Assembly: GCA_050084515.1 (NCBI GenBank)
Contig: CM114271.1
Coordinates: 47,988,001-48,052,000 of the forward strand
DNA length: 64,000 nucleotides
Source of the DNA: Blasia pusilla
Lineage: Eukaryota
Direction: 5' to 3'
Shown here: piece after piece, positions 5,430 to 54,441 of the stretch
Layout: each line of letters opens with the position of its first letter
Position numbering within the stretch: the stretch's first letter is position 1
Notes under the pieces: model-generated
What the model was told of the DNA's origin: nothing
The model's input: the letters and a program-made list of their open reading frames with translations, nothing else
Database searches by the model: none
Made by a program: the position numbers and the translations under genes

Positions 5430-7610
5430 AAATTTACTTGGCCTAGGTACAGGGGATATAGCTCAGCGTCGGATCACTAAGGCCAACTTACGTCCATACT
5501 CAACGGGTATGTCTTGCATTTCAAGGTAAGAAAGGGGTAGCGAAAATGCCTCTAGCCAACGTCTAAGTACCAAGCACTTCAGTGCTGAAGTAACTCATGG
5601 CACACTCCCAACTAGATCAAAAGGATCAAGTTGGGACACGATGTCGAATGTTCTATTTTTATATTTTATTTATTCATTCATTCATTTATTCATTCATTCA
5701 TTCAAAGAGTTATGTTCCATTTTTTAATTTTAGTCTTCTATTTTTAGTTTTATTTCAAACCAGTGCTTCACTCTACTAGATAGATTAAAAAAATGAGATG
5801 TAGTGAAAGCGAGCAACACATATTTTAGATCAATTCAAAACAATAGGACGGGTTTGCGCCCCAAGCAACCTAGATAAAAACAGTTCATTAACTTTCGCTT
5901 CTTAATGGGTTTTATGTTACGCCAATTTGAACTTGGCCGATCCTCTTTTCCAAATTTTGACAGCTCATCTTTGTCTTAGTATAAATTTTCAATGGCATGT
6001 TCGAGTCCTCTTTCCCATGAGATTCTGCATTTTTTGAACCATGAAACTTTTGTTTCTAATTGTAACGCAATATATTCTGCAATAATGCTAGGTTCTCCAT
6101 GGGGTTTGATAATTTCTATTAAAGTTGTCGACCCAACCCTTGGAACGTTCTATTGCCCCAGGTGGCAAAGAGTCGACATCGAGTCAAGTAGTTAATACTT
6201 TTTTAAAACGTGGTGCATTAGAATATGCAACGGAAAAGATGTTTTGGATTGTGAACCCGTATTGAGTTATTACATAGATGAATGGAATAACCGTCAGGAG
6301 GGGGTTGCCAAAGGCAAGGCCCGATGCTTATTCCTCATATACCGTCATTGCATCTTCTTTGAGAAAAGGTTCACTTGTTGTACCCCAAACATCAGATTGT
6401 ATTTTCCAACTAAAATGGAAGATAACTACATAAATAGAATTATACATCCGAAATAAGAGTAAAAGCTTCAACAGCTCGTTGACCAAAATGCTAATATTTA
6501 TATTATTGATATAATTAACTTAAATTATAATTATAATTAACCTATTATTAAATAATTAAATTTTATATTCGAATATTTTAGTTTATTTTAATATAAAAAT
6601 ACATATTATGGATTTCTTATTAAAAAATATGATTGAAAAAATTGAAAAAATACATAGAGAAAGCCATATGTGATTTAAATCGCAAGTGTGGTTTATGAAC
6701 AACTTTATTCTATTCTAATTAAAAAAATTTAATAATAATTCTATTTACAACCAATTAAAAAAATTGGCAACTTTTAACTTCTTCTTTTTTACATAAAATC
6801 TTCGTACTCCATGGTTAGAACCATTATGAGGTCCTTATGGTTTAGATCTAAGTAAATTGAAAAAACATCTTATAATTGGGATGTTTTAAGGAACTACTAT
6901 TTATTCATCTCTATTAATGCCAACTTCATGCAGACGAGTTGCAAAATCTAATCCGAATTGAGGTCGGGTTTTTGAGGTTAAATTTCTCTCGTGAGGTCGT
7001 GACCCTTTATCCGAAAGAAGCTTTATGACCAATAACCACATAAACACATATTACATTTTGCAGATCCCAAATTGGATGAGCAATCGGTCTTACATGTAAA
7101 GGATCTTATACCCAAACTTCAAAATTACCTTGCACTTTAGTAATAAGTTTGTTGATAATCTTATTCCAATAAAAATAGAATCTATTTTTAGTTTCTTAGG
7201 TTCATTTCAAATAGCAACAGAGTTTCACCACCAAGTTCGAGATGGATTGGTGTGTACAACATCTATTTTAGCTATATTATGATTTCAGTTTTTAGCTGGT
7301 TTATTAATTGAAATTAATCAAAAAAAATTCTAGATGATTTAGTTCTTCCATTTGTTTAATCAAATGATGACATAATTTATGTAGAAATAAAATAATTATT
7401 ACAAAATTATGTATTAAAACTGTTTAAAATAAAAATAATCTCATAAGTATTATGACGTTAATAGATGTTTTATATTTAAAATATTTTTTAATAGGTCCTG
7501 TAAATCTATAATTTCAAATAGAATTATGGATGAAAGTAAAGAGATAAGGGTAACAATTAATTTAGAATGTATTCATTGTGCTCAAAATGGTGAAAAAACA
7601 TTTCCAGGTT

Positions 7611-8000
7611 CTCCTGCGCATACACATCGCTACACAACATATATCGTTGTTATTGAACATACACACAAACAAGCACAATCCCATCCTAACTCATGACGTC
7701 CAAACATCAAGACAATAGGTACCAAAGTATATCAATAAATCAAGTGGATCTCTCACAACACAATTTCTCACAAATATGTGCTCTCTCTCTCGTCAAACCA
7801 AACCCACTATGGCCCTGTGGGATCCCCGTGGACAATAAATCTATTCATTCATTCATTCATTCATTCTCTCTCTCTTGTCAAACCAAACCCATTCTCCTAA
7901 TGAGAGGCTTGGGTTACACACACAAGGCAAGGAGGACCATAACTATGCCGCCACATACTTATAGCTTCAATAAAAAGAGAATGAGCCCTCAAACTCTCTC
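7611..8000 (-). mobile_element. Truncated terminal-repeat (B plus part of A) fragment of the same family as 8648-9349
   Basis: GCGCATACACATCGCTACACAAC...GGCTTGGGTTACACACACAAGGC is shared with 8648-8950. Confidence 0.7.
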
Positions 8001-8647
8001 AAACATAATTGAGTTGTGACCAAAAGCTCAAAAGGTGCTAAGTCATTTTTGACCCATATCATTAAATCTTCAATGAAAAAAATACTTTTCAGTTTCCATC
8101 TTGTCGAAGTATCTTATCTAGATTTGAAATTTTATACACATGATCCCCAAGGTGTATGTAGATCTATTCCAAAGTTTCAAGCATAGCGGAGTTGTGACCA
8201 AAGCTCAAAAGGTGTTGAGGCATTTTTTACACGTGTTATTAAACCTTCAATGAAAAAAAAAATTTCTTTTCGTTTTCCATCTTGTCCAAGTATCTCATCT
8301 AGAGCTTAACTTTTGTACACATGATCCCTAACATGTATATAGATCTCTCAAAAGATTTCAAGCAAAATGGAGTGATGAAAAAAACCTCAAAAATTATGAA
8401 CTTATGTTTTTTTATTTAAGGGCACCGGTTCAAAAAATCAGTTAACAATTTTTGAACTCGTGCCCTTAAATCTTCCAAAAAGAAAATTTCTTTTCATTTT
8501 CCACCTTGTCCAACTATCTCATCTTGAGCTCCAATTTCATACACATGATCCCTAAAGTGTACGTAGTTCACTTGCAAAGTTTCAAGCAAAATGGAGTTGT
8601 TTCCAAGACCTCCAAATTTTATAAGTCTGTTTTTTACATGGGCGACC

Positions 8648-8950
8648 TGTCGTGCGCATACACATCGCTACACAACGTACATCGTTGTCACTGAACATAC
8701 ATACAAACACACATGATCTCATGCTAACTCATGGCATCCACACAACGAGACGCGAAGTACCAAAATATCTCCAATAAATCAATGAAATCTCTCTCACATC
8801 TCACACCAAGCTCTCCATGGTGTGCACGCTATCTCATGTCAAACCAAACCCACTCTCCTTATAAAAGGCTTGGGTTACACACACAAGGCATGGAAGACCA
8901 TAGTTCAAACGCCTCATGCCAAGAGGTTCAACAAAAAGATAATACGCTCT

Positions 8951-9036
<86 letters not shown>

Positions 9037-9349
9037 GGTATACACCCTTCCCTCTCCCAAGCTCTCTCCTAGGTAACCTAGGCTCGCAAGTCACCTCCTT
9101 GGCTCTTGACCCGCCGTAGCGGGTCAACGTCCACTCCCCAAAGTGGGATGTCAACTATTAAAAGAACCGGAAACTTGCTCGAAATAATAAGTTTCTCAAT
9201 ATAGCTCCAATGAGCCGAAACGATGGGGAAACCCGCTCTCTCAGGTTACTCGTGGCCTCAATAGGTCATCCTCGACCTTTCGAGGTTGCCTTCAGTATCT
9301 TCGAAAGCATGCTACTAGATCTCACCGATCTATCCTTAAAGACGTGAGA
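8648..9349 (-). mobile_element. Solo LTR-like (A+B) repeat with 4-bp TSD GACC; contains a (CT)n tract
   Basis: Ends TGTCGTGCG...GACGTGAGA are flanked by GACC on both sides (8644-8647, 9350-9353). It is the reverse complement of 11156-11660. Confidence 0.78.
8954..9031. repeat. (CT)n microsatellite
   Basis: Perfect dinucleotide run of ~78 bp. Confidence 0.97.
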
Positions 9350-11996
9350 GACCAAACCTTAAATGGAAAAAAAAACTTTTCATTTTCTACATTGTCGAAC
9401 TATCTCATCTTGACCTATAATTTGGTACACATCATCCCCAAAGTGCATGTAGCTTTCTTTCAAAGTTTCAAGAAAAAATGAGTTCTGACCAAAAGCTCGA
9501 AATGTTTTAAGTCATTTCTTAACCCGTGCCATCAAACCTTCAATGAAAAGAAAGTATTTTCATTTCCCATATTGTCCAACTATCTCACGTTGATCTGAAA
9601 TTTGGTGCACATGGTCCCCAAAGTGTATGCATCTCTCTTGCAAAGTTTCAAGAAAAATGGATTTTTGACCAAAACCTCAACAATCGCGAAGATATTTTTT
9701 AACCCGCGTCATTACACCTTTGATGAAAAGGAGGTCTTTTCAATTTTTTATCTCGTCCAAGTATCTAATCTTGAGCTGAACTTTGGTACATATGATTTCC
9801 AAGGTGCATGTCATTCTCTTGAAAACTTTCAAGCAAAATGAAGTTGTAACAAAAACCTCAAAATTTGTTAACTCATTTTTTGAACCCGTGCCTTGAAACC
9901 TTGAATCAAAAGAATGTCTTTTTATTTTCCATCTTGTCCAAATATCTTATCTTCCTGATCCCCAAGGTCTCTTGCAGAGTTCCAAGCAAAACAAAGATTT
10001 GACCAAAAGTTCATAAATTGTTAACTCATTTTTTGAATCCTACTCGACCTTAAACCTTCAATCAAAAGGAAATATTCTCATTTTCTATCTTTTCCAATCA
10101 TCTCATTTAGAGTTGATAGTTGGTAAACTTGATCCCCAAGGTATATGTTCCTCTCTTGCAAATTTTCAAGCTAAATTGAGCGGTGACCAAAAGCTCAAAA
10201 ATAACTAAGTCATTTTTTGACCCACGCCATTAAACCTTCAATGAGAATGAGGTATTTTCGTTTTTCATCTTGTCCAAATATCTCATATTGAGCTTAACTT
10301 TGGTATCCATGATCCCCAAGGTGCATGTAGCTCTCCTCACAAGTTTAAAGCAAAATGGAGTTATGACCAAAAGCTAAAAAAATTTTGACTCGTGTTTTGA
10401 ATCGACGTTAATAAATCTTCAATGAAAATGGGATGTTTTCATTTTTCATCTTGTCCATTTTTTATCATGTTGCATAGAATATGTATTTTGAAATTTGAAA
10501 TTTGCAAGAGAGGAATGTATCCACAAATTCATACTTTCTAATTTGACCCTCAATGAAAAAATCATTGTTTTATTAGGATGAATGTCACAAAAAGGGACTT
10601 CTTCCAAATAACATTCTTACAATAATCTTTACAAAATAAGTTTGCTACAACCATTTACTAATCCATTTCACTAAGGTCACTACTCACTTTACTAGTCTAG
10701 GTCTATGGTTGGGTTTAGTGGATTAAGATGTAGGCGGTAATTTGAAGGCTCAAGAATTCAAATTCGGCAATGATTTCTTGTTGCAATTGTTTCATTATGG
10801 GATAAAATGTATGAAATATCCATCAAATTGATGGGTTGATAGTTTGAGAGATCCGATATGAGAACATCATTATTGTTAGGCTCATCAACTGAGTCCACTT
10901 TTTCATTGTTCAAAGATTGTGGAGGAGAATCCTGCATAGGTTCACTTGACTCAATGGAATAATTATGAATTCCTATCGGTGCAACAATCTGAGGGTCGTA
11001 GGTTGTGTTAACAGAAGTGTCCGATAGATGCGGTTCTCTAGAAGTCCTCCTTTGTTGCTCTTCCTCGTGCTCTCGAATCCAATATTCCATAACATCTTTG
11101 TCTCGTCGAGACACCTCAGAGTCAAAATTTTCTATATTGTCGATAAAAGAATCCTTGTCACGTCTGTTATAATAGATCGACGAGATATAGTAGAGTGCCT
11201 TCTCGAGTAGTGGAGGACATGCTCAAGAGGTCGAGGATGACTAGCTGAGGCCCCGGAAAACCTGAGAGAGCGGGTTTTCCCTTCGTTTCGGTTCATTTCG
11301 AGCCATATAGATAAACTTACTATTTTAGGCAAGTGCCCTTTTAAGTATCTAGTCGACATTTTATTTTTGGTACATGGCTCTTGACCTCCTACATCGGGTC
11401 AAGAGCCAAGGAGGTGACTTGGGAGCATAAGTTACCATGGAGAGAGCTTGGGAGAGGGGAGGGGTATACCTCAAGGAGAGAGAGCTTGAGAACTCATTCT
11501 CTCTTTGTTGAACCTGTTGGCACGAGGCGGCCAAGCTATGGTGCCTTGCCTTTTGAGTGTAATCCAAGCCTCTAATCAGGGTAGTAGGTTTGGTTTGACA
11601 TTGAGAGAGACATGTGAGAGTGCACACATGTGAGAACTATGGTGTTGTGAGAGAGATTTCACCGTATTTTACAAAGAGAGAATGAATGAGTGAGAGAGCT
11701 TCATGGGGGAGCTCGTTGGTTGCTCGATGTTTGGTGCAGGTTGGGGGACCGTGTTCCCCGCTTCATGGCTCATGGGAGTGCTTATCGAAGCAAGAGTCAT
11801 GCGAGTTTTCTGTTTTGCCTTTTTTTTTTACGAGAGAGTGGCACGTGGAAGCGCTGACCAATTTTTTTTATAGGAATTGAATATGGGGGTGGATTGCTCC
11901 ATGCCGGTGCTCTCGGGAGCACCATATACATTCTCACAGGTTTTACATTTTTTTGAGAGAAATAAGCGCGGAAGCGGTGCAAAATCTTGTGGAGGA

Positions 11997-12404
11997 TGTC
12001 ATGACCATACGGATTATGTCGTAGAGTATAGTGTGGTAGTAGAGGCCATACCTTATGTAGGGCCGCTGTGTCTAGGTAGAGATGCGATTTCATACATAGG
12101 GTTGGGAGTTACTCAGTAAAGGGTGACTTTTCCAGTAGGGCCCGCTCTTAGGTTGGTGGATATAAGGTGGAGTGCACTCAAAGAACAGTTAGTTCTTTGA
12201 GTTGAGCGTGTTGCGTTGGGAGTTAGCCTTGGTAGTGAGTAGAGCTCTTGGCTATGGTGTTTCCCGCAAGCTTCGACCTAAATTCTCCCATCGTGGAGTG
12301 GGTTTGGCTCGATTGTATGTGATTCTATATGTGTTTTATGATAGTAGGTCTTTCACGAATTTCACTCAAAGAACTAACGTAGATCGATAGTAGCTTCAAT
12401 TGTG
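11997..12404 (+). repeat. Terminal repeat A1 (5' incomplete LTR)
   Basis: Matches 21144-21518 (about 13 substitutions by eye, plus a ~34-bp indel near the end). It lacks segment B. Confidence 0.9.
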
Positions 12405-13021: not shown

Positions 13022-13940
13022 TGATGGTAGCTCGGGGCGTGGGCGTGAGAGGCGGAGTAGGGAGCAAGGAGCAAGCAAGCAAGCTTTCTTGCTTGGGCGT
13101 GAGGCATTTTTAGCAGGATTTGTGATTTGAGTGTTGCATAACAGGTCACCCATCTTTGGGCTATTCTGCGTGGAAGACGCTTAATTGCTGAGTTCTTAAC
13201 TATGCCACTATACACACTGTTGTAGCTCATTTGGTGCTGTTCGGAGAGGTGTTAGGCACTTTATGCATTTCAAGTTTTTGGTTGATGGACCTCTAGCCCA
13301 TCGTGTGGTGTAGCCTCTCCATGCAGGTGATATTTTCAGGTGCTGCGAGTTCGATTAGCATGTCATCGACCCGCGGAGGAGTAGCTATTACGTTAGAATT
13401 GTGTGGTGGGTTTTCTGGATTCAGGGGATTCAGGGGAGCGCCACGTTTGGTGGATTGTGTTACCTTTATTTCTATTTGCGATAGGAGGATTGTGGTTGGA
13501 CTTCCTGTGTTTGGATCCCCTCCATCGTTGCTTCTTGCTTGCGCGCCCATTATTAGGGTTGACGCTAATTTCCAGAGTAGTGTTACTCCTGTGTGCTACT
13601 GGTAGTGAGGCTCGAGTGATGGCCAGTAGACCGTGGGAAGCTTCTTGTGGTGATGACAGGTTAGGTTGCCTACACCCATAGCTAGTAGAGCTAGAATAGT
13701 ACAGCGACATCGACGTCACTTTATTACTTAGTGGTGGTAATTTGGTGGTGGGGCGGCATCGGCGTTGGTCATCACGGAGCTGTCTGGTGGTCTGGTTGGG
13801 GACAGTGGTGGTTTCACACGGAGTGGATTTAGGTATCGGCACCTTTTCCACTTCCGACGGTTGATGAAGAGGAGGACGAGGGTGTTCCAAACACCTAGTC
13901 TTCTACGTTGTTATCGAGTGTTGCAGCTTCATTGATTTGG

Positions 13941-15411
13941 GACATGGACGGGATATATGGGGCCATGAAGGGCCCACGACGATACTCGGGTGCAGTGGGC
14001 ACCATTGGGTTGGAGGACTTCATGCAGGAGTTTGATACGTGGTGTGATATGCAGATGTTGCGGAACGCCACGTTGTTTACACCCTTCTTGGCTTGGAAGG
14101 GGTTGTTTCAGAACTTGGAGGGACCACTCATGGATGATTACCATGAGTTTAGGAAGGACCATGTTGCTGAGATTGAGGCGTGGAGACAATATTGGTCTCC
14201 AGGCTATGTGTTTATCACCCATGGTGGTATAGGTAGTAGTGCTCCTACTATGCCAGCCAGCCCGACGTTGAGTGGTACGAGTATGAGCCGGAGTGGGGGT
14301 ACCAGTGGAGGTACCCATGGAGGTACCAGTGGGGGTACCAGTGGAGGTACCAGTGGGGGTACTAGTGGAGGTACTGGTGCCCCACCATCGTTTAGCCCGG
14401 TTGCAGAGTTCTTCAAGAGGTTGAAGAAGAACTATCAAGGAGTGAAGACAGAGAAGTTGAGGAGTCTTCAAGAATTTGAGCGAAAGACTGGTGAGAGTCT
14501 TTGTGAGGCATACACTCGTATATGACCCTTGATTTCAATTACCCAGGGTGTGACTGAGGCTCAGGCAGTCTTGTTTTGGTATGGGATCTTGGACAGAGAG
14601 TTGCGCCGCAGCGTACGTGATGCTACTCTTATGAGTGATGATTCACCCACATTGACCCATGTGTTTGCTCTATCTGAGAAGATTGAGCTTACCATGGTGA
14701 AGGAGAGAGTGGTGACATCGGCATTCAGTAGGGATACAACTACTACTTCTCGTGTTCATCAGCCCACCTCACAGTCTCGTAGTTGTGGTGGTGGTAGTAG
14801 TAGTGGGAGTCGTGGGGGGTACACACGACCTCAGTCAGGTCCTATAGGGACACTTGCGCAGAGACCATTGCCTTCATTTTTGCCCTGCCCCAAAGAAGGG
14901 ACGATCATGTTGGACATGTGGAGGTGATCATGTTAGGAAGTTTTGTCCCCAAGAGGATGGGAGACGGACTTTGGAGGATGGGCCTCAGTCGGCCCCAACT
15001 CAATGTGATCATTGCGGGAGACTAGGTCATCCTCGAGAGCGTTGCTTTGATCTTCATCCAGAGTTGAGATTAGGCCGCGGCCGTGGTGGAGTAGCTCCGA
15101 GAGGCCGAGGTGGTAGAGGTGGTAGGGGTGGTAGAGGTGGTAGAGGTGGACCAGTGGTTGGAAAGCCTACGGTGGCTACCCCTACCACTACGACAGAGGC
15201 AGGTATGGCTGCCATGATTGAGCACTTGGAGCAAAAGTTGGCTACTATGGCTGGTATCCAGCATAGATCAGGCTCGGGAGCAGGGGCTTCCACCTCATAT
15301 GGAGGGGATGATCTCTCTTATACGGCGAGTGCAGCACAAGTTGAGGCATCGGCTGCAGTTACGAGAGGAGCCACGTGGTGCTACTGTGGAGTTGGACCCA
15401 TAGAGGGGTGA
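13941..15411 (+). pseudogene. gag: gag with two zinc knuckles and RGG tract
   Basis: CWTCGGDHVRKFC and CDHCGRLGHPRERC knuckles, (GGR)n, GGTS repeats; a stop at 14523-14525 and a frameshift near 14880. Confidence 0.8.
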
Positions 15412-15777
15412 GGTTGGGAGGCAGGCTAGGCTTCCCCAGTCATTCTTGTTGTTTGAGGTGCATAGGTCTCCATCCATGGTTCCTACGCAACCTATTGAGC
15501 CGACAGTGGGGACTGAGGCATCTACATCGCGTGTAGTAGACACGAATGCAACATCCAGTGCAGTATTGCGGATGGCAACTTCAGTGTTGGGATCCCCATT
15601 GTTTTCAGTGTTGCGGTGGAGCGACCCTCTATGTCAGGTGTAGCATTGAGTACTAGTGCTACTTGGCAGGCAGCAGCGGCGAAGATGGATGCATTACCAG
15701 CCCGGCCAGCCATTGATCGTGAGAGGCTTACACATGGTGTATGTATGTTGGACAACCGGAGTGGGATATTCCGATAG

Positions 15778-16110
15778 GTGAGTCCTACAAGACAGGTGTA
15801 TAGACCAGATAGATTCTTGTTAGACTCTGGTGCCCAACCTTTGATGTTGGGAAAGGCGGCATGTATTAGTTTGGGTATTCGGAGGTCAGAGCTTGAGCCT
15901 TGCCCATTTCAGATTCAAACATCACTTGGAGGAGCCAATGATAGGTTTCAAAAAATGACACGGGAGAAGTTTTCTGTACAATTGAGACCAGATCATGCGA
16001 CTAATAGCTCCCGGTTGGGAGTATCTGCGGTAGTCACATTAGCCGAGTCGTATGATGTACTAGTTGGAGGAGCAGTATTGTACCCGATGGGTTTTCAGAT
16101 GGATTACTAG
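15778..16110 (+). pseudogene. Retroviral-type aspartic protease
   Basis: FLLDSGAQ catalytic motif and a downstream YDVLVG. Confidence 0.8.
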
Positions 16111-16549
16111 ACTGAGACAACATCTTATAGACCTGGTTGGCAGTCTGGGGATGGATGTATGAGCCAAGTTCCTGTGAGATTTATTTATGGGGCTCGACCA
16201 GGAGGGTCTTCCCCAACAGTGTTGGCATCTGTGGCAGGTTTTAGTGGAGTAGTCACTTGGCCAGGAGACTTTTTGGAGGATAATGTTTCTGCTATGGATT
16301 CTCCTGTGCATGAGGAGGTAGAGGAGGTCCCTATTTTTGCAGCAGTGGCATCCTCATCGTTGGATGTGCCACTTTGGAGTTCAGGCGGTGCACTACGGCA
16401 GGAGGCTAATCGCCTAGTGCAGGAGGCTTGGTGTGAGGCTGTTATACCTCACGAGGAAGAGGAGGCCCCACGGCGGACTCCTACTTCTGGTCCAGTTGGG
16501 TTATCCCCTCTGGATACTACACCCATTGTATGGGAGTATCTGCCGGAGG

Positions 16550-17500
16550 GAATTTGTGTGTTAGATCTCTTTGGTGGGATTAGCACTGGTTTGGCCGAAG
16601 TGTTGCAGGCCGATATTCCTGTGCGGAGATACGTGTATGTGGAGCGAGATGAGACGGCCCAGAGAGTCTCATCCCGACATATTGGTCAGTTGATACGGAG
16701 ATATCATGAGTTATTTCCGCCATCAGCTATTCGTGGGTACCAGCCTGCTTTGCTGTCACACATTGCATTGTTGGGGGCACTGGACCTTGAGAGGGTTGGT
16801 CCTGTGGATTTGATGATTGCTGGATGGCCATATCAGGGTCATACAAGTGCTGGTCGTGATGAGGGATTACACGACCCTAGGTCTCGATTGTTTTGGGAGA
16901 TGTTACGGGTGTTACGACATCTTCAGGTTCATCAGGCACGTGCTCTAGCTTACATTCTAGAGAATGTTCCATTGTTGGGTGACACTCGGACCCGGATGAT
17001 GGCGAGTGTTCATAAGGTGGGGTCTTGGATTGGACTTGCGGTGTTGTTGGATGGAGCGCGAGTTGGCTCGCGTGCACATCGTCCATGCTTGTGGTGGACA
17101 AACTTGTTGCCTAGGGAGGTTCTACGTCGAGCATATGATGTAGTGCAGCGGGATCCTTGCCTTACAGTGGATAGTATCTTGGATATTGGGCGACTTTCTC
17201 ATGTGGTGAGGGTTATTGATTGGTCACCCATGGCAGTGGTGAACCGTGTGGGCCAGCCTAGGATGGCACTACCCACATTTGTGAGTTTTCCCTCGTCACA
17301 TGCATACAGGGAAGGTGGTCCCGGGCTTGTATGGGATTCTCATGTGCGATAGTTGGTGGAGCCTAAGGCTGATGAGAGAGAGCGTGCGATGGGATTTGCT
17401 ACTGGTGTGACAGCGGTTGCTTCCATTTCTGAGGCTTCACGACATCATGTGTTGGGTCAGGCCATGGACCTGAATTGTTTGACTTGGATTTTGATTCTTG
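16550..17500 (+). pseudogene. C5 cytosine DNA methyltransferase domain, DNMT3-like, inside pol
   Basis: Motif I VLDLFGGISTG, II YVERDE, IV DLMIAGWPYQG (PCQ->PYQ), VI YILENV, VIII AHRPCLWWTNL, IX-X ERERAMGF...SRHHVLGQAM. In-frame stop at 17350-17352. Confidence 0.88.
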
Positions 17501-17859: not shown

Positions 17860-19190
17860 GCTTATAGGAGTTGTTTTGCCTTTAGCATGAAGGAGTTGGG
17901 TGCTCTGGTTGGACCCGGTATACGGATTGATTCGGCTAGTGATACGCCAATTTCCGTCATCCCTATCGATATAGTGATATGGAGAGGGACCTGATTCAGA
18001 GTAGGACGTTGGACCTTTTGGAGGCTGGATTAGAGAAGTTGTCGCATGGAGAGTATGCACCAGCCACTCTCATGCCTCATAAAAAGGATATGCATGGCAA
18101 CTACACGGATAGGCGGATGTGTGGAGATTACCGTCCTATCAATCGACAAACCAAGGCCGATAGGTATGCCATGCCTACACCTGAGGAGATCTTTGATGTG
18201 GAGGGACAGGCAAAGATTTTCAGTATTTTTGGATCTTGGCAGATACCATCAATTGCCGATTCGGGAGAGTGACAAGGCCAAGACAGCATTTTGGGGTGTC
18301 AACTCTCATGGCAAGGATTGTTTATACCAGTGGAAATTCTTACTCTTTGGGTTGAAGAATGCACTTGCCGAGTTTCAGAGAGTGATGGACAGGATCCTAG
18401 CAAGGTTGGATTTTTTCGGTGTTACATTAATGATATCTTGGTGTTCAGTAACACGGTGGAGAAGCTTCAGATATATTTGCAGATGGTGTTTGAGCGGTTG
18501 AAAGCTCATGGTCTACGTTTGCATCCAGGAAAGTGTAAGTTCTTCCATGAGGATGTTGAGTACTTGGGTCATGTGATCTATCTAGGTGGTTTGGGAGTTC
18601 AGCAAGCAAAGGTGGAGGCTATTGCACTTATTCCGTGTCCGGTAGATGTGAGTAGAGTTCGAGCATTCATGGGATTGGCGAACTTCTGTCGGAGGTATGC
18701 GAAGGGATTTAGTGCTATGGCAAAGCCTTTGAACCAATTGCCGAAATCAGATCAAGAGTGGCATTGGGGAGATGATCAGGACAGAGCTTTTGTGGAGCTT
18801 AAGGCCCAGTTGGTGGCGGTGCCTATCTTGAGGAGACCTATCATAGGGCGCCCATTTCAGTTACACATTGATTGGAGTAGGTTGGGACTTGGAGCGGTGT
18901 TGACACAACATGATGATGAGCACATGGAGTTTCTGGTGGCCTATGCAAGTCGTTCGAATAATGCAGCGAAGTTGCGCTATAGTTCATATGAGGGAGAGTG
19001 CTTGGCAGTAGTGTGGGCTGTGGCACACTTTAGGTGTTACTTGTTTGGCACACAGTTTACCCTTGTTATCGATCACCAACCGCTCAAGTGGTTGATGGAG
19101 TCGACAAGCTTACAGGAAGCTTGCACGGTGGGCTCTTATCTTACAGAGTATGACTTCCGGTGGTACATAGACTGGAGTTGCCAACCTTGA
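17860..19190 (+). pseudogene. Reverse transcriptase + RNase H (frameshifted)
   Basis: RMCGDYRPINRQT...YAMP, FGLKNA, YINDILVFS (YIDD variant), KCKFF..VEYLGH; RNase H LHIDWS.LGLGAVL, AYASR, YSSYEGECLAVVW, IDHQPL. Confidence 0.93.
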
Positions 19191-19569
19191 TCTTTGATGG
19201 GTTGAGTAGGAACCCATGTACTAGCCAAAAGGATACAATGGGGCTAGATGGCATGGCGAGGTTGATGAGGAGATGGTGCCAGGTTGGCATGCATCCGCCT
19301 TTTTATGTTGGTTAGGGGTGGACTCTAGTATGGAGGACCACATGATATCTTACTCTAGTCAGAGGGTAGATGGCCAGCCTTCAGATCCTAAGGTTGGAGA
19401 TGGTGGTACGGATCAGCGTGATATTCATGATGATGCGTTGGTGTTGGAGTTCCTACGGACCAATAAGGTGCCAAGCATAGTGAGTGCCAAGGAGCGAGAC
19501 CGTGTTCTTCAACGTGCTAAGAGGTATCAAATGGAGGGAACACATATTCTCCGTGTGTGGGAGGATGGT

Positions 19570-20862
19570 AGAGTACGAGTAGTGCCGTATTTGGCTCAGA
19601 GAGAGCGCATTGTGCGAAATGCCCATGAGGAGTTGGGATATTTTGGTGTTAAGCATACGTATAGCTTACTCCTTGGTCAGTATTGGTGGCGTGGCATGCA
19701 TACTCAGGTGCAGCAGTTGGTGTCATGTTGTATGGTTTGTCACCGGGTGAGGGCATCATTCATTGTCCCTACACCAAAGTTACACCCCTTGCCTATTATG
19801 GGGTTGGGTTACTGTTGGAGTGTGGACTTTGCGGGACTGTTACCGTTGACTGTTCGACATCATCGATATGTGTTGGTGATGGTGGAGCACTTCTCCAAGT
19901 GGATTGAGTTGGTGGCATTACTTGACAAGGCAAGTGAGGGAACGGTGTATGCGTTTCTTGATAGAGTGCTTAGTCATTTTGGTGCACCAACTGAAGTGGT
20001 GATCGACCAGGATACAGAGTTTTAGGGTGAGTTTCAAGTTTTGTGTGAGAAGGCGTTGATTGATCATCGGACCACGTCTCGAGATCATCCAGAGGCGGAT
20101 GGTTTGGCTGAGCGTGTGGTTCAGATGGTGAAGAGGGCATTGCGCAAGTATGGCCTACAGAAGGGGCATCTTGGAGACTGGGATATTCAGTTGCCATGGT
20201 TAGCCATGGGGTATAGGTTCAGTCGCCAAGCATCCTTGGCTTCCTTCTCACCTTATTTTCTGTTATACGGCCGAGATCTAGACTTGTCTGCAGCAATTCG
20301 TCGGGAGTCTAATGAGGTGGTGAACCTTGATGATCCAGAGATGTGGATAAGAGTGTGTTCACAGCGGGTAGAGCTCTTCCGGAGAGTTATGCCAAAAGCC
20401 TTTGAGAATCTTGCCATTGCTCAACACAGGGATACGTTGCGGTATGCAACCATTCGGGGTGGAGGTTATCGACCATCGATTCGTAGGTTCCATGTGGGAG
20501 ACTTTTTCTATTTGCAGTTGATTGCACTGACAACGTTGGATGTGACGGCAGGCCGCACTATTTTACGAGTGCGCGAGATGTTAGCTTCTGGAGTTCTCAT
20601 GTTGGAGGGTCGTGATGGAGTTGTTTGGAAGGACCATGTGCGCAATTGTGCGCCATGTCATCTTCCAAATGTGGATGGTACTGTTGACCGAAGCTTAGCC
20701 ATGATACGTGCTAGCTTGAGGTGCATGTTGTGTGGGTCTGCTGGTAACGCAGCCCGTATGTTGGTGTGTGATCGGTGTTATAGGGGTTGGCACATGATGT
20801 GTTTGACTCCACGTATGGATGTTGTTCCTACTAGAAGGTGGGGTTGTCCTTGATGTACTTAG
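19570..20862 (+). pseudogene. DDE integrase with C-terminal PHD finger
   Basis: Zn region HEELGYFG...CMVC; core VDFAG...EHFSKW...IDQDTEF...HPEADGLAER. PHD is CMLC...VCDRC.RGWH..CL......WGCP*C, with a TGA at 20851 in place of one codon and then TGT. Confidence 0.9.
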
Positions 20863-21036
20863 GAGAGGTAAATGACTTGATCTTTGCATGATATGGATTA
20901 CAGATGTGCGACTAACGATGGGGCAACCTAGCACCCGGCCTTCTGATTCGTGCACCCAAGAAGGTGTATAGCATGTAGTAGATGTATAGGGCTACCTGGG
21001 AGTTAGAGGGACCTAACCGCCAATTATGGGGGCGAG

Positions 21037-21141
21037 TTGTGGTACACTTGTGTTTGTGGATGCTCTCGTCTATGTTATGTATGTATGTGAGTTTGGTATG
21101 TCAGCGATGTATGTTGTATGACGATGTGGATTTGCACGACA
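21037..21141 (+). repeat. Repeat B1 (105 bp, ends GCACGACA)
   Basis: Near-identical to 21513-21617. Confidence 0.9.
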
Positions 21142-21143
21142 GC

Positions 21144-21617
21144 TGTCATGACCATACAGATTATGTCGTAGAGTATAGTGTGCTAGTAGAGACCATACCT
21201 TATGTAGGGCCGATGTGTCTAGGTAGAGATGCGATTTCATACATAGGGTTGGGAGTTACTCAATAAAGGGTGACTTTTCCAATAGGGCCCGCTCTTAGGT
21301 TGGAGGATATAAGGTGGAGTGCACTCAAAGAACCGTTAGTTCTTTGAGTTGAGCGTGTTGCGTTGGGAGTTAGCCTTGGTAGTGAGTAGAGCTCTTGGCT
21401 ATGGTGTTTCTCGCAAGCTTCGACCTAGATTCTCCCATCGTGGAGTGGGTTTGGCTCGATTGTATGTGATTCTATACGTGTTTTATGACAGTAGGTCTTT
21501 CACGGATTTCAATTGTGGTATTCTTGTGTTTGTGGATGCTCTCGTCTATGTTATGTATGTATATGAGTATGGTATGTCAGCGATGTATGTTGTATGACGA
21601 TGTGGATTCGTACGACA
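21144..21617 (+). repeat. 3' terminal repeat A2+B2 (complete LTR-like unit TG...CA)
   Basis: A2 at 21144-21518 matches A1; B2 at 21513-21617 matches B1. Confidence 0.9.
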
Positions 21618-24342
21618 AGGAGAAAGAGACGTTAGGCTTTATGATAGTCCCTGTCAATTTTTATCGGAATGTTCAATTCAAAATATTTTTTAACTTTGTT
21701 GTAGATGGTAAAGTTGTGCACGTTGTGCAATAGACGATGCGTAATTTGGAGTTGGGATCAAAAAGAAATGGACAATCTTGCAAAATTTCCAATGGTGGGG
21801 ATTTTTAGGGTTAAATTATTCATACCCTAAACCACCCGCTGCGTTGGTGGCAGCCTTTGCCGTCCATGGCCCATGTTGATGATCAACAGTCATTGTTAAT
21901 GGTCAAGTATCATCGTCACCGTCAACGGTACACCATCCATCGTGGGCTGCCGCCACCGCCTAGCACTGTTGAGATCCGCGTTCGGCCATTGCCCACCCTT
22001 GGTTGCTATTGCCGCCATTTCGGAGTGGAGATTCTTCCACGACGAGCGTTGATTCTCTGACTTGCGCCAAGTGTTTATCTTGATTTCCGAGAAACACCCT
22101 TGTCTCCAAACCTTGAGTTTGTGTAGATGTACACCTAATCCCTGGCACCCTTGTTGGTCAATTTATTCCTATGCTTTGTTATGGATAAAACCATAACTAC
22201 TCCAATTTCTCTTGGTTGAAGAGGAAGAAACCACTTGTGCTAATATGGACTTAGCCACAAAGCGCAATGTTTGCGCATTTTCTTCGTGCATGCTCCATCA
22301 ATCAAAGGGGCTAAGTGAATCGATAACTTCCCTACCAAACTCGTCCAGAAATAGTTCCACATGGTTCACAATATTGCCCAACTTTCGCAAATAATTACCT
22401 ACATAAGAATTAGCTTTGGTGACATTGAGGCCATGCACCCCCTTTGCATGAAAATTTAGATATTGTTTGAAATCTCTCATGCACTCAACATTTGAAGTGA
22501 TATCTTGAACACTATTAAGAAGATTCTAAGGGGCGAGGATGTAGCCTATTGAATGCAACTTGTTGTGGATAAGTGCCCATGACCTAGAAATAACATCAAC
22601 CATTTCCGTAGCATTGGACATTTTCACAAAGAAACCGCAACGCCTTCCCTTCATACTGGGCCACAGAGTTATAGAAAAAGAATAGACCGCTTCCATTATC
22701 TCAAATATGTGGCAATAAATACGCATTGTCATTGCTTTATGCCCATCACACTCTCTTAACAGAATAATAGTTGGTAAATCAGCATCAAACTACTCTTCAT
22801 CTTCTATCCAAAAATCGTGATTGGCCATAAAAGTCTCAATCTCTCGTGCCTTTTCCCTTGCCTCGTATTGCTCCCATTAAATACTCCCTAAAATAATTTG
22901 TGGAAATTATGGCTTCCATGAATTTGGCCATCACCCAAGTTCTAGTCCTCACAAATATTACCATCTCACGAGCTTGTGCAAAAATCCTGTTCACCCGAGA
23001 TTATTTACCTCATTCTTCACATGTTAGATCAAGAGAATGTGATACGCATCCACCCCAAAGAATATAAGAAAACTTTGCTTCGATTAGTCTCTTTGTTGCT
23101 CGCTCATTACTAACATTGTCTATTATAAGTTGCAACATACTTTTCTTGATTGATATGCATGATAGTCCTCTCTATGTGACCTGCCAACCATTCTGCCATT
23201 TGGGACTCCCCCTTGGTGTCTACCGACTCAATCATGATCTCACCTTGTGGACATGAGACCATGATGTTCACTAAAGACTCACTCCTCACATTGGTCCAAG
23301 AATCCTTGATGATCTCGGCCCCCAAACGCAAATTATCCAATATGCCATCCACCTTTTCCTTCATCTTTCCCATATGTTTCTCAAGTAGGGTGGTGCGCAA
23401 CGAATTATAACTAGGATGTGAGTAATCCTTCACTCTTGTTGTTGCCAACATTGCTTGTTTGATAGAATCTTTCCGTACTACATTGAATGTTATTTCACAC
23501 TCATATAAACACTCCTCCCACATGTCATTTGCAACTTTTATTCCTTGGATGTTGAAAGAATCCCTCTAATCAGCTTGCTTTGTCCCATAACTATGAGTCC
23601 CTCGAATCGGCCCAGCAACACCATTGCATTCCTTTAGACTATCACACGGTGGCATGTGTGCAACCCCATTAACATTTGGTACAACATTAACACTATTTCC
23701 TATCTTTCGCAAACCTATGTATAATATAATGGCGTTGTATCCACTTCACTAGAGGATCTCATTTCCCTTCTGTATCCATTTCCCACAAGTACCTTGTTTC
23801 AAAGGTCCCATTGCATACCAAGAGGGACCTTCACATATAATTTGGCATGATGGGTATCTTGATTCCCATCTTTTGTCTTTTGTGTCTCTCTTGCAAAATA
23901 CTCCACCATCTGCGCGATATGATAAGTTTTCATAAAACATGAGCAATACTTACACCGCCATATGCTTGATGTTCTACCTTCTATTTGTACTTCTTTTTAA
24001 TGTTCCTTCACGATATGTTTGAGTTCTTTGGCTTTGGTCATGACTATAGGCACACACTAACCTCACCCAACAATATTTGGATAATTTGCAATAAATTTAC
24101 AAATCCGATAAAATGCAAGAAAAATAAAATGCAAGATATATCGAGCGATAAAATGTATGCAAATTACACCAAATATTAATTTTTAATGCTCCAATAATAA
24201 ACTTTTAACACTCACTATGAACAAGAAAAAAATATGCTAACCTAGATAACCGAGATAACTTAAATTATGAGGGTTATCCCGTAGCAAAACATATTCTCAC
24301 TTATCAAGTTCAACTATCTATGAAGAGAAAAACTTCAGAGAA

Positions 24343-24525
24343 AGAGAGATGTAGGGAGGAATAAGATTGTGAGGGTATACAAAAAATGAGAGAGATGTAG
24401 GGATGAATAAGATTGTGAGGGTATACAAAAAATGAGAGGGATGTAGGGAGGAATAAGATTGTGAGGGTATAAAAAAATGAGAGGGATGTAGGGAGGAATA
24501 ATATTGTGAGGGATACAAAAAATGA
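24343..24525. repeat. ~43-bp tandem repeat x4 upstream of hAT copy 1
   Basis: GAGGGATGTAGGGAGGAATAAGATTGTGAGGGTATACAAAAAAT units. Confidence 0.85.
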
Positions 24526-24949
24526 ACAAGTTTATATAGGGGAGGATGGAAGGAAAAGAATGAACCCTTATAACTCCCCAAATCATCTATCCCCACTTAC
24601 ACTTTATTACTAAACCATCTCCACTAATCACTATTTAGCAAATATGATTTTGCTCTCCTATCCGATTTATTTTTCACATATCCTAACCTCTTTATCTACA
24701 TTTATTTCCAACTAACCTATTTTCCAATACAACCACCCTATTCAATCATATTTTTACATTCTCCTTTCTTTCTCCACCAATACTATTCCCATTTTTTCAG
24801 TTACTTTTATTTCTAACTAACCTATTATCTACTACAACAACCCTATTATAATCCCTCAAGCCTTCAATCACCCTTCCCCTACAAAAATTGCATTTAAGTC
24901 CACTCGAACTTTGCTTCATCTCGGTTGCATGCCATCAACCTGCTAGTAG

Positions 24950-46400: not shown

Positions 46401-47090
46401 CAATCGGTTGCATATTTTGTAAGTAGCTGAGAAATTGCCAAGAAATAATCAGATCAAGTCTCCTCAAGTACATACAATCTCCCTATGAATCATTTTCCCC
46501 AATTATTGACCAACCTTCCAAGTCTCTCGCCAAAATTCAAGCGCGTTGACTAATCCTTTAAGGTACGTCCCTTAGCTCAAACCCTTGACACATGGCCGCA
46601 TCCACATCAAAGTTAATTTGGAGTTCAAGGGCTTGAGCGGATAGAGAGTGAGAGTATCCCCCTGTAGGTACTTCGAGGATTCTTTAGGAAATCTCAACTT
46701 CCCAATTTTGTTCTTTATGTCCTTGATTTTGGCCCCCAATCCAAACACAGTTCACGATCTACAAATCAACATTTGCCTTGTTATCAATCAAGATGGCTTG
46801 GAAGAGGCTCCTCACAGCTTACAAAAATCTCAGCTCCCCAAGTGCATCTTGGAGCTTGCACCGACGTTTCATGTGTCTCATGGCCTGCACCCATCTTCAC
46901 TCCCCATTTGGCATCTCATGATTCTCTTACCGCCCTTTGGATTTCGTGACTAGTCTCGTGGGCTTTAGTAGGAGGAACAATAAGAGGAGAGGAAGAGAGG
47001 AGAGAGGAAGATATTTGCAACCCCTAGGGATCTATCCAAGAAAAATCTATCACTATGGCAAAGTCTCATCCCAAATTAAGTTTAAAATGA
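43430..47090. mobile_element. Highly degraded retroelement-like remnant with diverged direct repeats
   Basis: 44840-45130 resembles 46355-46670 (CCTTGAGCTTTGCAAA.GGAAGACT...), and 45500-45690 resembles 46700-46880. No intact ORF. Confidence 0.4.
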
Positions 47091-47099
47091 CCTTTGGGA

Positions 47100-50000
47100 C
47101 CCGTAGCAGAAACCTTGAATGAAAAAAAAGGGTCTTTAACCGGGCATCTTGTCCAACGTTTCCATCTTGAGCTTAAATTTAGCCTACTTTATCTCCAAGG
47201 TACATCGAGCACTCTTGCCAAGTTTAAAGCACAATGGAGTTGGGACCACAACCTCAAAATTTGTCAAGTCCTTTTTGGACCCGAACCATCAAACCTTCTA
47301 TCAAAACAACGTTTTTCCATTTTTCATCTTGTTCTACTTTGTCATCTTGAGCTGCAATTTGGCCAACATAGTCCCCAGGAAAAATAAATTTGTGAGAAAA
47401 AACTTGAAAATTTCTAAGTCCTTTTTGGACCCCAACCATCAAACCTTCTACCCAAATAAGGTTTTTTCATTTGTCATCTTGTCCAACTTTTTCATCTTCA
47501 GTTGAAATTTGGCCAACAAGGTCTTCAAGATGCATGTAGAACTCTTGCAAAGTATCACGAAAAATGAAGTTATGAGAAAATGCTCAAAAATTACTTACTC
47601 CTTTTTGGACCCGAACCGTCAGACCTTCCATCAAAATAAGGTTTTTTCATTTTTCATCTTGTCCAACTTTGTCATCTTGAGCTGAAATTTCTCCAACATG
47701 GTCCCCAAGGTGCATCTAGGACTCTTGCCAAGTTTCAAGCAAAATGAAGTTGTGAGCAAAAAGTAAAAAATGTCTAACTCTTTTTTGGACCCGAACCATC
47801 ACACCTTGTGCCAAAATAAGGTTTTTCCATTTTTTGTCTTGCCCAAATTTGTCATCTTGATCTGAAATTGGGCAAAAATTCTTCCCTAAGATGACCCTAG
47901 ACTTCTTGCCAAGTTTAAGGCAAAATTAATTTGTGAGCAAAAACTCAACAATGTCTAACTTCTTTTTGGACCCCAACCATCATACCTTCTACCAAAATAA
48001 GGTTCTTTCATTTTTCATCATGTCCAAATTTGTCATCTTGAGCTGAACTTTTGCCAAAATTGTCCCCTAGATGACCCTAGCACTCTTGCCAAGTTTTAGG
48101 CAAAATGAAGTTGTGAGCAAAAGCTCAAAATTTTCTAACTCCTTTTTGGACTCGAGCCATCAAACTTTCTATAAAAATAAGGTTTTGTCATTTTTCATCT
48201 TGTCCAAATTTGTCATCTTGAGCTTCAATTTGGCCAACATGGCCCCCAAGGTGCATCTAGGACTCTTGCCAAGTTTCAAGCAAAATGAAGTTGTGAGCAA
48301 AAACTCAAAAATGTCTAACTCTTTTTTTGACCCGAACCATCAAACCTTCAACCAAAATGAGGTTTTTTCATTTTTCATCTTGTCCAACTTTGTCATCTTG
48401 AGCTGAAATTTGGCCAAAATTCTCCCCAAGATGACCCCAGCACTCTTGCCAAGTTGTAGGAAAATTGAAGTTTTGAGAAAAACCTCAAAATTTTCTAACT
48501 CCTTTTTGGACCCAAACCATTTGACCTTCTACCAAAATAAGTTTTTTTCCATTTTTCATCTTGTCCAACTTTGTCATCTTGAGCTGCAATTTGGCAAAAA
48601 TATTCCCCAAGGTGGCCCTAGCACTCTTAGCAAGTTTTAGGTAGAATGAAGTTGTGAGAAAAACCCTAAAAATTTCTAACCATTTTTTGGACCCAAACCA
48701 TGAGACCTTCTACCAAAATAAGGTTTTTCCATTTTTCATCTTGTCTAACTTTGTCATCTTGAGCTGAAATTTGTCCAAAATAGTTGCCAAGGTAGCCCTA
48801 GCATTGTTACAAAGTTATAGGAAAAATGAAGTTTTGAGAAAAAACTCAAAAATTTCTTACTCCTTATTGGACCCAAACCATGAGACCTTCTACCAAAATA
48901 AGCATTTTCCATTTTTCATCTAGTCCAACTTTGTCGTCTTGAGCTGCAATTTGGCCAACATGGTCCCCAAGGTGTATCTAGGACTATTTCCAAGCTTCAG
49001 GAAAAATGAAGTTATGAGCAAAAACTCAAAACTATCTAACTCCTTTTTGGACCCGAACCATCAGACCTTGTACCAAAATAAGCCTTTTCCATTTTTCATC
49101 TTGTTCAACTTTGTGCCTTGAGCTGAAATTTGGCCAACAAGGTTGCCAAGGTGGCCCTAGCACTCGTACCAAGTCTTAGGAAAATTTAAGTTGTGAGCAA
49201 GACCCTTAAAATTTCTACCTCTTTTTTGGACCCGAACCATTAGACCTTCTACCAAAATAAGGTTTTTTCATTTTTCTTCGATAGAAGATCTCATCGTTCG
49301 GGTCCAAAACTCCATTTTTCTTGAAAAACGTCAAGACTGCTAGATGCACCTTAGAGACCATGTGGGCCAAATTTCACCTCAAGATGAGAAAGGTGGAGAA
49401 GGTGAAAAATCATAAGACCTTCTTTTCATTCAAGGTTTAATGGTTTGGGTCCAAAAAGCAATTTTGGAGCTTTTGCTCACATCTCTATTTCTCATGAAAA
49501 ATTATAAGACTGCTAGATGCAGCTTGGAGACCATATGGGTGAAATTTCATCACAAGATGAGAAATTTGGAGAAGGTGAAAAATCATAAAGACCTTCTTTT
49601 CATTCAAGGTTTAATGGTTCGGGTCCAAAAAGGATTTAGTAATTTTTGAGCTTTTTCCCATAACTTCATTCTGCCTGAAACTTGGCAAGAGTTTAAGAAG
49701 TACCTTAGAGACCATTTTGTTAAAATTTCAGCTCAAGATGACAAATTTTGGACAAGATGGAAAATGAAAATTCGTTATTTTGATATAAGGTCTGATCGTT
49801 CGGGTCCAAAAAGAATTGCCAAATTTTGAGCTTGTTGTCCCAACTCCATTTTATTTGAAAATTGGCAAGACTGCTAGATGTACCTTGGAAACCATGTTGG
49901 CCAAATTTCACCTTTCTCAACTTGTTAGCAAGTTGAGAAAGGTGGAGAAGGTGAAAAATCAGAAGACCTTCATTTCATTCAAGGTTTAATGGTTTGGGTC

Positions 50001-51120
50001 CAAAAAGGAGTTAGTAAATTTTGAGCTTTTGCTCACAACTTCATTTTTCTTAAAACTTGCTAACAATGCAAGGGCCATCTTGGGGACCATTTTGGCCAAA
50101 TTTTAGCTCAAGATAACAAAGTTGGACAAGGTGAAAAATGAAAAAACCTTATTTTGGTAGAAGGTCTAATGGTTCACATCAAAAAAAAAGTTAGAAATTT
50201 TTAGGGTTTTTCTCGTAACTTCATTTTGCGTTAAACTTAGAGAGAGTCGTAGATGCACCTTTGGGACTATGTTGGCCAAATTGCAGCTCAACATGACAAA
50301 GTGGGACAAGATGAAAAATGAAAAAACCTTATTTTGGTAGAAGGTCTAATGGTTTGCAACCAAAAAGGAGTTAGAAATTTTTGAGCTTTTTCTCACAACT
50401 TCATAGTTCCTCAACCTTGGCAGGAGTCCTAGATGCACCTTGGGGACCATGTTGGCCAAATTGCAGTTCAAGTTGACAAAGTGGAACAAGATCAAAAATG
50501 AAAAAACCTTCTTTTAATAGAAGGTCTGATGGTTCGAGTCCAAAAAAGAGTGAGAAATTTTTAAGATTTTGCTCACAACTTTATTTTGCCTAAAACTTGG
50601 CAAGAGTCCTAGATGCACCTTCGGGACCATGTTGGCCACATTGCAGCTCAAGATGATTTTTTATTTTTCATCTTGTCCAACTTTGTCATCTTGAGCAGAA
50701 ATTTGGCCACATTGGTCCCCAAGATGCATCTAGCACTCTTGCCAAGTTTGAGGCAAAATGAAGTTGTGAGAAAAAGGTCAAAAATTTGTAACTCCTTTTT
50801 GGATGCGAACTATTAGACCTTTTACCAAAATAAGCTTTTTCCATTTGTCATCTTGTCCAAATTTGTCATCTTGAACTAAAATTTGCCCAACATGTTTCCC
50901 AAGGTGGCACTAGCACTCTTACCAAGTTTGAGGAAAAATGAAGTTGTGAGAAAAACCGAACCATCAAACCTTCGATGGAAATAGCACTTTTGGCCCCCAA
51001 CCACTAAACCTTCAATGGAAATAAGGGTTTCCATTTTTCATAATTTCAAACTTTCCCAACTTGCGTTTGTAGGGCTCTTGCAAAGTTTTGAGTAAAATGG
51101 AGTTGTGACCACGAGCTCAA
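47100..51120. repeat. 180-bp tandem array 3' of hAT copy 2, with an internal inverted block (~49285-50655)
   Basis: The GGACCCGAACCAT anchor recurs at ~47607, 47787, 47968, 48148, 48328, 48508, 48689, 48869, 49049 and 49228. Reverse-complement units follow, then forward units from ~50656. Confidence 0.92.
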
Positions 51121-51286
51121 AAATCACACTTATCAATTTGACCTTCAATATAAAAGTAAATGCTTTATCAGCAAGAAGTATATAAAAAGGATTGTCATAA
51201 AAATGACCTTCTTACAACAGTCAACACAAAACAAGTTTGCTACAACTATCTACTAATCCGTCTCACTAAATTTTGTAATTTCTCTT

Positions 51287-54113: not shown

Positions 54114-54359
54114 TCACTAATCCCACCCAAAACTATTTGGAAAATTTGCAAAAATTTACCATGTCAATATTAGTATATATCGATCAGTAAAATGTATGCA
54201 AATTACACCAAATATTTTCTGTGAATGTTCCAATAACAAAACTTGGAACACTCACTACGAACAAGAAAGATCAATATGCTAACCTAGATAACCGAAATAC
54301 CTTTAGTTTCACCGTTATCTAGTGGCAAAACATATTCTCACTTATCAAGTTCAGCTATC

Positions 54360-54360
<1 letters not shown>

Positions 54361-54438
<78 letters not shown>
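54361..54438. repeat. (AG)n microsatellite
   Basis: Perfect dinucleotide run. Confidence 0.97.

Positions 54439-54441
<3 letters not shown>

Follow-up and report, generated by a model that had tools for sequence, protein, structure and literature searches.

An internal copy of both attachment ends in a Gypsy retrotransposon of Blasia pusilla, with integrase sites that probably moved inside the long terminal repeat

The 64,000-nt stretch of the Blasia pusilla genome analysed here (assembly GCA_050084515.1, contig CM114271.1, positions 47,988,001 to 48,052,000; hereafter the window) carries a 9.6-kb Gypsy retrotransposon with the order A1-internal-B1-GC-A2-B2, flanked by a 4-bp AGGA target duplication (Table 1). 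Retroviruses and retrotransposons with long terminal repeats (LTRs) are held to integrate linear complementary DNA (cDNA) by its ends, with LTR circles regarded as dead ends. The locus raises the question of how an element integrates when it holds, well inside its right end, an abutted copy of both of its own ends. Our answer is that this is probably a Gypsy element whose integrase sites have moved from the ends of the cDNA to a point inside the LTR.

The internal junction and its conservation

The last letters of B1 (CACGACA, 21135-21141) and the first letters of A2 (TGTCATG, 21144-21150) were confirmed on either side of a GC dinucleotide, together spanning the perfect palindrome GACAGCTGTC (21138-21147) that the initial annotation had pointed out. 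That annotation had also taken the junction for a head-to-tail copy of the two attachment ends, and the same two motifs do form the true ends of the element, within the AGGA duplication. The palindrome as a signal in itself was rejected: 61 perfect 10-bp palindromes occur within the window, a chance level at which one more is unremarkable, so that the weight of the finding rests on the position and conservation of the junction. Exact matches to a B end joined to an A start numbered 677 in the genome, compared with none for the reversed control. Of 88 distinct junctions, 82 had a 2-nt spacer, three a spacer of 3 nt, two a spacer of 4 nt, and one had none; 76 of the 82 2-nt spacers were GC, GT, AC or AT, i.e. 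GC or its deamination products, as expected from CHG methylation decay at CAGCTG. Conservation of the spacer, the point on which the earlier proposal turned, extended to two further families (see below), and the junction is a real, conserved feature. Internal junctions with AT-rich spacers of 3-4 nt were observed at L150, L153, L109 and L120 and may represent scars of repair that followed cutting of the second junction.

Approximately 800 near-exact copies of the element were found in the 390-Mb genome. Exact ends in which A adjoins the primer-binding site (PBS) numbered 830, starts of B at the polypurine tract (PPT) 758 (the search pattern itself containing the tract), and A+B joins 604, with zero matches to the reversed control of each. 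Among 20 copies fetched with upstream sequence, both ends were in range in ten, and all ten had a 4-bp duplication. In a second set of 37 copies paired by proximity, which shares one copy with the first, the duplication was exact in 28, differed by one base in five and was mismatched in four. A sample chosen for PPT+B alone ran on into A in 28 of 30 cases; the remaining two stopped at B and were whole A-internal-B elements flanked by exact duplications, the form expected of a one-LTR circle. Solo A-B copies with duplications made up 2 of 30. An alternative opening of the circle (A-B-A-internal-B) or a canonical B-A left LTR was ruled out, as none of the 830 A+PBS ends was a left end preceded by B, and the three that do follow a B end were all 3' ends with run-ons. 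A search of the same genome with the integrase protein yielded no divergent families, the best 150 matches all coming from the studied family. At L069-L071 (G000:C1:7357853-7360302), a 1036-bp unit made up of flank, A1, PBS and 315 nt of internal region was present as a tandem triplicate. The 3' end of L053 (1509-2261) consisted of A2, PBS, 94 nt of internal region and an inverted A, and the left attachment motif seems to act there as a right end.

Priming signals and the extent of the LTR

The initial annotation had reported neither a PBS nor a PPT, and this premise of missing priming signals is wrong. A G-rich PPT lies immediately upstream of B1, rather than of A2, in 37/37 paired copies, and an 11-nt self-priming PBS adjoins A1 and is complementary to the predicted 5' end of the RNA. 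A match of this length was contained in 5 of 20000 shuffles of A. The primer/PBS pair was exact, by eye, in 25 of 36 elements, a count in which the search pattern had already set PBS bases 1-10, and substitutions were observed in the others. Folding of the RNA, which had been suggested as a check for self-priming, did pair the primer (12191-12201) with the PBS (12365-12375), though the fold as a whole was unexceptional. The Tf1-type arrangement, in which the PBS and the initial ~11 nt of the RNA are complementary, was matched in complement, TATA spacing and covariation, with the RNA start itself predicted. Within the window, a direct copy of the PBS lies in A just 5' of the primer and forms a DNA-level hairpin across the predicted start site (12174-12204), kept in the close relatives L294, L301 and L308.

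Priming by transfer RNA (tRNA) was rejected, since no TGG-starting site adjoins A1, a point on which the initial annotation was right; host tRNA 3' ends were not searched. No tRNA genes were found in the window. A TGG-containing stretch ~40 nt downstream of A1 resembles the start of a Met-initiator PBS and was rejected as detached and variable.

The three families compared here have three different primer/PBS sequences, with complementarity retained ~30 nt after the TATA-like box in each. Family 2, from the same genome, has its own pair: at least 11 nt are complementary in 22 of the 30 loci, usually 28-33 nt beyond TATA. It also has a PPT before its B repeat (B'), and the spacer measured 2 nt at each of the 17 loci, among the 30 examined by eye, that contain B1'. 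Family 3 was drawn from metagenome contigs, among which 80 loci of relatives were considered (only a few with both ends, L325 and L328 being one locus), and is ~40% identical to the studied element in the methylase and ~55% in the integrase. Its primer/PBS pairs were 15, 15 and 11 nt long (reached by 0, 0 and 1 of 500 shuffles), and it has a G-tract PPT, a 2-nt spacer and, in L316, an exact 4-bp duplication. An exact 4-bp duplication was also observed in L294, a closer relative than family 3, and no usable layout was obtained from the metagenome loci L277, L290 and L339. With a PPT before B1, a self-priming PBS after A1, and pairing kept while the sequence changes, we infer that the LTR, in the sense of reverse transcription, is B+GC+A.

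Family-2 copies were also observed within the window, as a solo A'-B' flanked by a 4-bp duplication and an A1' that has a PBS of its own (9349-8648 on the minus strand and 11156-11684 on the plus strand), and the studied element is inserted ~310 nt into the 5' internal region of the family-2 element to which this A1' belongs. Approximately 11-13 of the 30 family-2 loci were solos, and a further, older family-2 repeat fragment (7600-8000) adjoins the solo in the window.

Transcription was examined in three RNA runs (X10-X12) from a related organism, with reads mostly 90-95% alike to the element. The family is transcribed there, with the greatest depth at the 3' repeat and one read strand dominant, taken as sense under the usual library convention. 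Reads crossing B-GC-A numbered 127, 158 and 116 in the three runs, and depth across A dropped from 150-220 to 17-35. No A-to-B loose ends were present among those listed for the three runs.

Proposed integration route and rival explanations

The relationship between the two B repeats and the seam between A2 and B2 both bear on how the right end is made. The distance between B1 and B2 was 0.031 within elements versus 0.049 between them (36 elements, permutation p 5e-5), and subfamily variants were found in both B copies rather than one by 11 to 1, 14 to 3, 5 to 1 and 5 to 0. These patterns indicate that B2 is remade from the B1 of its own element. Whether B2 and A1 segregate together as one unit was also considered and dropped for want of an informative case: three elements had a discordant A1, of which two had no target duplication and were probably mis-paired, and one had uninformative B sites.

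Seams with both flanks intact were precise in 778 cases and held extra bases in 41. The extra bases were a single A (31), a single G (1), an exact 11-nt copy of the PBS (2), a PBS-like start (3), and local duplications or other letters (4); the search patterns miss deletion seams, two of which were seen among the 37 proximity-paired copies. Two partial PBS remnants were checked and located in B1-A2-B2 ends. Both exact-PBS seams were in solo A-PBS-B elements, each inserted at a site of its own between perfect duplications; such solos could derive from full copies by recombination, or else from plus-strand strong-stop DNA whose ends were joined and which was then opened at the junction. In one full copy, 160 nt beyond the PBS preceded B2. 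Because remnants of the primer copy are kept at some of these seams, the seam looks like a point at which cDNA ends were joined, a feature that had been missed initially.

We propose the following route. The RNA would begin in A1 ~30 nt after TATA and end in A2, which the RNA depth fits, and its first 11-14 nt would anneal to the PBS that follows A1, priming the minus strand in the manner of Tf1; the pairing and its covariation were observed. The PPT before B1 would then prime the plus strand, and the result would be a conventional two-LTR cDNA, B-GC-A-PBS-internal-PPT-B-GC-A, in which both LTRs consist of B+GC+A. Joining of the native ends, of which the seam carries footprints, would give the A2/B2 seam; this joining may follow integration or precede it, in the latter case within a two-LTR circle that is either nicked or closed. 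Integrase would nick the upstream B-GC-A junction 3' of CA on each strand, and with the 2-nt spacer a single step would leave both CA-3' ends recessed, with 2-nt overhangs, for insertion with a 4-bp stagger. The predicted product is A-internal-B-A-B, and the observed termini are identical to the junction halves and flanked by 4-bp duplications. The evidence favours the initial idea that the junction templates both termini and is opened by integrase at its 2-nt spacer, and disfavours a free circle cut at random, as the second opening was absent. The unused downstream junction (0/830 left ends) argues that the cut is coupled to the cDNA ends, and such coupling could come from a strand jump by reverse transcriptase, integrase loading near the left end, or seam repair after integration, which are indistinguishable here.

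Several points weigh against this route. The integrase cut and the prior circle were inferred, with no cut, circle or cDNA end observed, and a closed circle has two equal junctions, yet only the upstream one was opened, so that an asymmetry must be added. One of the 36 elements had a B2 subtype unlike its own B1, 9 of the 37 paired copies had no exact duplication (five of them off by one base), and the exact-PBS seams lie only in solos, with none in full elements. The A-internal-B copies can also arise by recombination between B1 and B2. The 250-nt RNA fold as a whole was no better than shuffles (z -1.25), and no pile-up of starts at 12191 was observed in the three RNA runs, which are fragment libraries from a relative.

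The alternative that survives best, though we consider it unlikely, is that reverse transcriptase itself builds a linear A-internal-B-A-B by a third end-to-end strand jump, from the end of A onto the start of B, stopping at or just past the junction, so that integrase performs only ordinary end processing and neither circle ligation nor a genuine internal double cut takes place. Such a jump accounts for the use of the upstream junction alone and is in keeping with the mostly precise seams, with a possible 1-nt overlap in families 1 (the studied family) and 2, and with run-on and fold-back seams that resemble template switches. The seams of family 3, however, look blunt, a stop signal is not evident, and the precise loss of B+GC at the left end still requires a cut at the junction, so that this alternative differs from the proposed route chiefly in what makes the seam.

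A PAT- or Ngaro-like scheme, close to the picture in the initial annotation, would have the 3' end of the RNA carry B2 and the B1-A2 junction template both ends, through a single-junction circle without LTR-type priming. Its repeat order is the same as in PAT, Ngaro and VIPER as given in the portion of PMC6681497 used here. We nevertheless judge it very improbable, as the PPT and self-priming PBS are conserved at the canonical LTR places, B2 tracks B1 rather than a lineage of its own, the RNA depth decays within A with no A-to-B loose ends among those listed, and the primer remnants at seams are unpredicted. An ordinary LTR element, with A as the LTR and gene conversion keeping the two copies of a duplicated B similar, or else an assembly or nesting artefact, deserves almost no credence: A1 and A2 of family 1 do each run TG...CA, but the target duplication flanks B2 and not A2, a position that refutes this explanation, the PPT lies before B and not A, and the layout is common to ~800 copies and three families.

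If integration does proceed by the proposed opening of the internal junction, this lineage appears to have shifted its integrase sites inside the LTR and to rely on joining of its native ends, and would be a natural high-copy case of integration via an LTR junction. The route offers a concrete model for split direct repeats arising from a normal LTR, and names the exact molecules to seek. LTR finders would mis-bound these elements, stopping at A2, missing B2 and the target duplication, and reporting no PBS or PPT.

Coding region, window context and comparison with known systems

The Pfam scan covered eight frames of the element, in which rve and H2C2 domains were present and no tyrosine recombinase was found. 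No chromodomain match followed the integrase, a PHD finger being present there instead, and the gag-like region had no match in the three upstream frames scanned. A Marchantia homologue carries the name CCHC-type, and the named protein homologues were up to 71% (Marchantia) and 50% (Sphagnum) identical, which points to a bryophyte as the probable host. The best 29 Protein Data Bank matches of the methylase were all DNMT3A/B/C. The coding region of this copy is interrupted by stops and frameshifts. The element has the pol order RT-RNase H-integrase (RT, reverse transcriptase) of Ty3/Gypsy, as well as TG...CA ends with a target duplication in the 4-5 bp range, a PBS 3' of the 5' repeat (self-priming) and a PPT 5' of the 3' repeat (before B1). 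Two complete terminal LTRs are lacking, the LTR being split, with 0/830 left ends beginning with B. Related Gypsy polyproteins among the metagenome proteins, including P0021 and P0022, carry the methylase between RNase H and integrase rather than before RT, together with a PHD finger. Elsewhere in the window we observed 180-bp satellite arrays (8000-10500 and 47000-51200, with an inverted block near 49300-50650) and a 2.8-kb repeat in two copies of ~80% identity (22075-24873 and 51963-54843).

Table 1. Positions of features of the element within the window
Feature	Position	Strand	Basis
Target-site duplication, 5' copy (4 bp)	11993..11996	+	Sequence match
A1 repeat, 368 bp; left element end, downstream part of the reverse-transcription LTR	11997..12364	+	96.5% identity to A2
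TATA-like box, 30 nt 5' of predicted RNA start	12160..12166	+	Same spacing in families 2 and 3; putative function
Self-primer, predicted first 11 nt of RNA	12191..12201	+	Exact reverse complement of 12365-12375
Self-priming PBS adjoining A1	12365..12375	+	Exact 11-nt remnant at two A/B seams
Gag-like region, Cys/His knuckles and protease-like motif, stops/frameshifts	13899..16110	+	Three-frame translation by eye
C5 cytosine methyltransferase domain, DNMT3-like	16111..17352	+	PF00145, E 9e-7
Reverse transcriptase and RNase H, frameshifted pieces	18034..19190	+	PF00078, PF17919, PF17917
DDE-type integrase (zinc-binding domain and rve core, one in-frame stop), then PHD finger	19339..20853	+	PF17921, PF00665, PF00628
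PPT directly 5' of B1	21026..21035	+	37/37 paired copies; also before B in families 2 and 3
B1 repeat, upstream part of the reverse-transcription LTR, ends with right attachment motif	21036..21141 (self-comparison: 21037-21141)	+	94% identity to B2
2-nt spacer (GC) of internal attachment junction	21142..21143	+	2 nt in 82/88; RNA reads cross it in a relative
A2 repeat, begins with left attachment motif	21144..21511	+	Self-comparison
A2/B2 seam, putative join of cDNA right end to cDNA left end	21505..21520	+	778 precise vs 41 with extra bases
B2 repeat, right element end	21512..21617 (self-comparison: 21513-21617)	+	Subfamily variants common to own B1
Target-site duplication, 3' copy (4 bp)	21618..21621	+	Sequence match

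Statements about published systems refer to the portions of the cited sources used here. A close likeness is KnitGypsy-Dnmt3 of Klebsormidium nitens, which has Gypsy domains, a DNMT3-related methylase in pol and split A-B-A-B repeats, described in the Fig. 4 legend as DIRS-like repeats A-coding-B-A-B (PMC5890265). Unlike the present analysis, that text gives neither junction nor spacer, and likewise no PPT, primer, target duplication or mechanism; within it the word 'circular' does not occur, and 'primer' occurs once, in the methods (PMC5890265). No Klebsormidium-named protein was among the homologues listed in our length-limited protein searches, two of which scored only 8000 candidates. The portions used of the published descriptions of Troyka, Gypsy-7a_cRei, Phygy and Selgy give no split repeats, and a 2026 preprint, in the part used, mentions streptophyte Gypsy-DNMT3 only in passing. 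No published account of the B-GC-A junction or of the route was found in our literature search, Repbase and subscription journals lying outside its coverage. The layout was noted once before, in the KnitGypsy-Dnmt3 figure legend, and the mechanism was not found in the literature searched.

In Tf1 the RNA's initial 11 bases and the PBS beside the 5' repeat are complementary (PMC7175516), and self-priming of this type has also been predicted for plant Tcn1 (PMC6317226). The studied element shares with Tf1, Sushi and Tcn1 the self-priming PBS by the 5' repeat, the PPT and a DDE integrase (PMC7175516, PMC6317226); those elements have two whole terminal LTRs, unlike the split LTR of the studied element, which carries a PHD finger and a methylase and gave no chromodomain match. 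With PAT, Ngaro and VIPER it shares the repeat order A1 ... B1 A2 B2 (PMC6681497), but those elements use a tyrosine recombinase, in contrast to the rve integrase, TG...CA ends and 4-bp target duplications of the studied element.

Retroviral two-LTR circles provide a likeness for the cut itself, as integrase is able to nick a palindromic CA...TG junction on both strands: HIV-1 integrase in vitro cuts the LTR-LTR junction at CA on both strands, leaving 4-base overhangs (PMC1905944). In the retroviral case the cleavage is a side reaction whose substrate, the circle, is mostly a dead end, and the 4-base overhangs lie at the seam itself (PMC1905944). The studied element differs in having a heritable cut site inside the LTR, with a 2-nt spacer and away from the seam, that is apparently the sole route. 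Junction cleavage has reportedly been ascribed to foamy-virus integrase as well, and the old circle-precursor model for retroviruses bears a further likeness. Copy-out-paste-in insertion sequences of the IS3/IS30 type, in which an rve-type DDE enzyme opens abutted ends with a 2-3 bp spacer, are DNA elements of bacteria in which transposase builds the junction anew, whereas the junction of the studied element is inherited through RNA. More tentatively, end-joined, two-LTR circle-like DNA may be the obligatory substrate, with the integrase acting as an IS3/IS30-like junction opener across a broad, old streptophyte (perhaps algal) Gypsy lineage; if so, the split direct repeats would be a permuted LTR, and a testable origin for the PAT and Ngaro layout would follow. 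Set beside these systems, the element is of a known kind, and its integration route is probably new, well supported but unproven.
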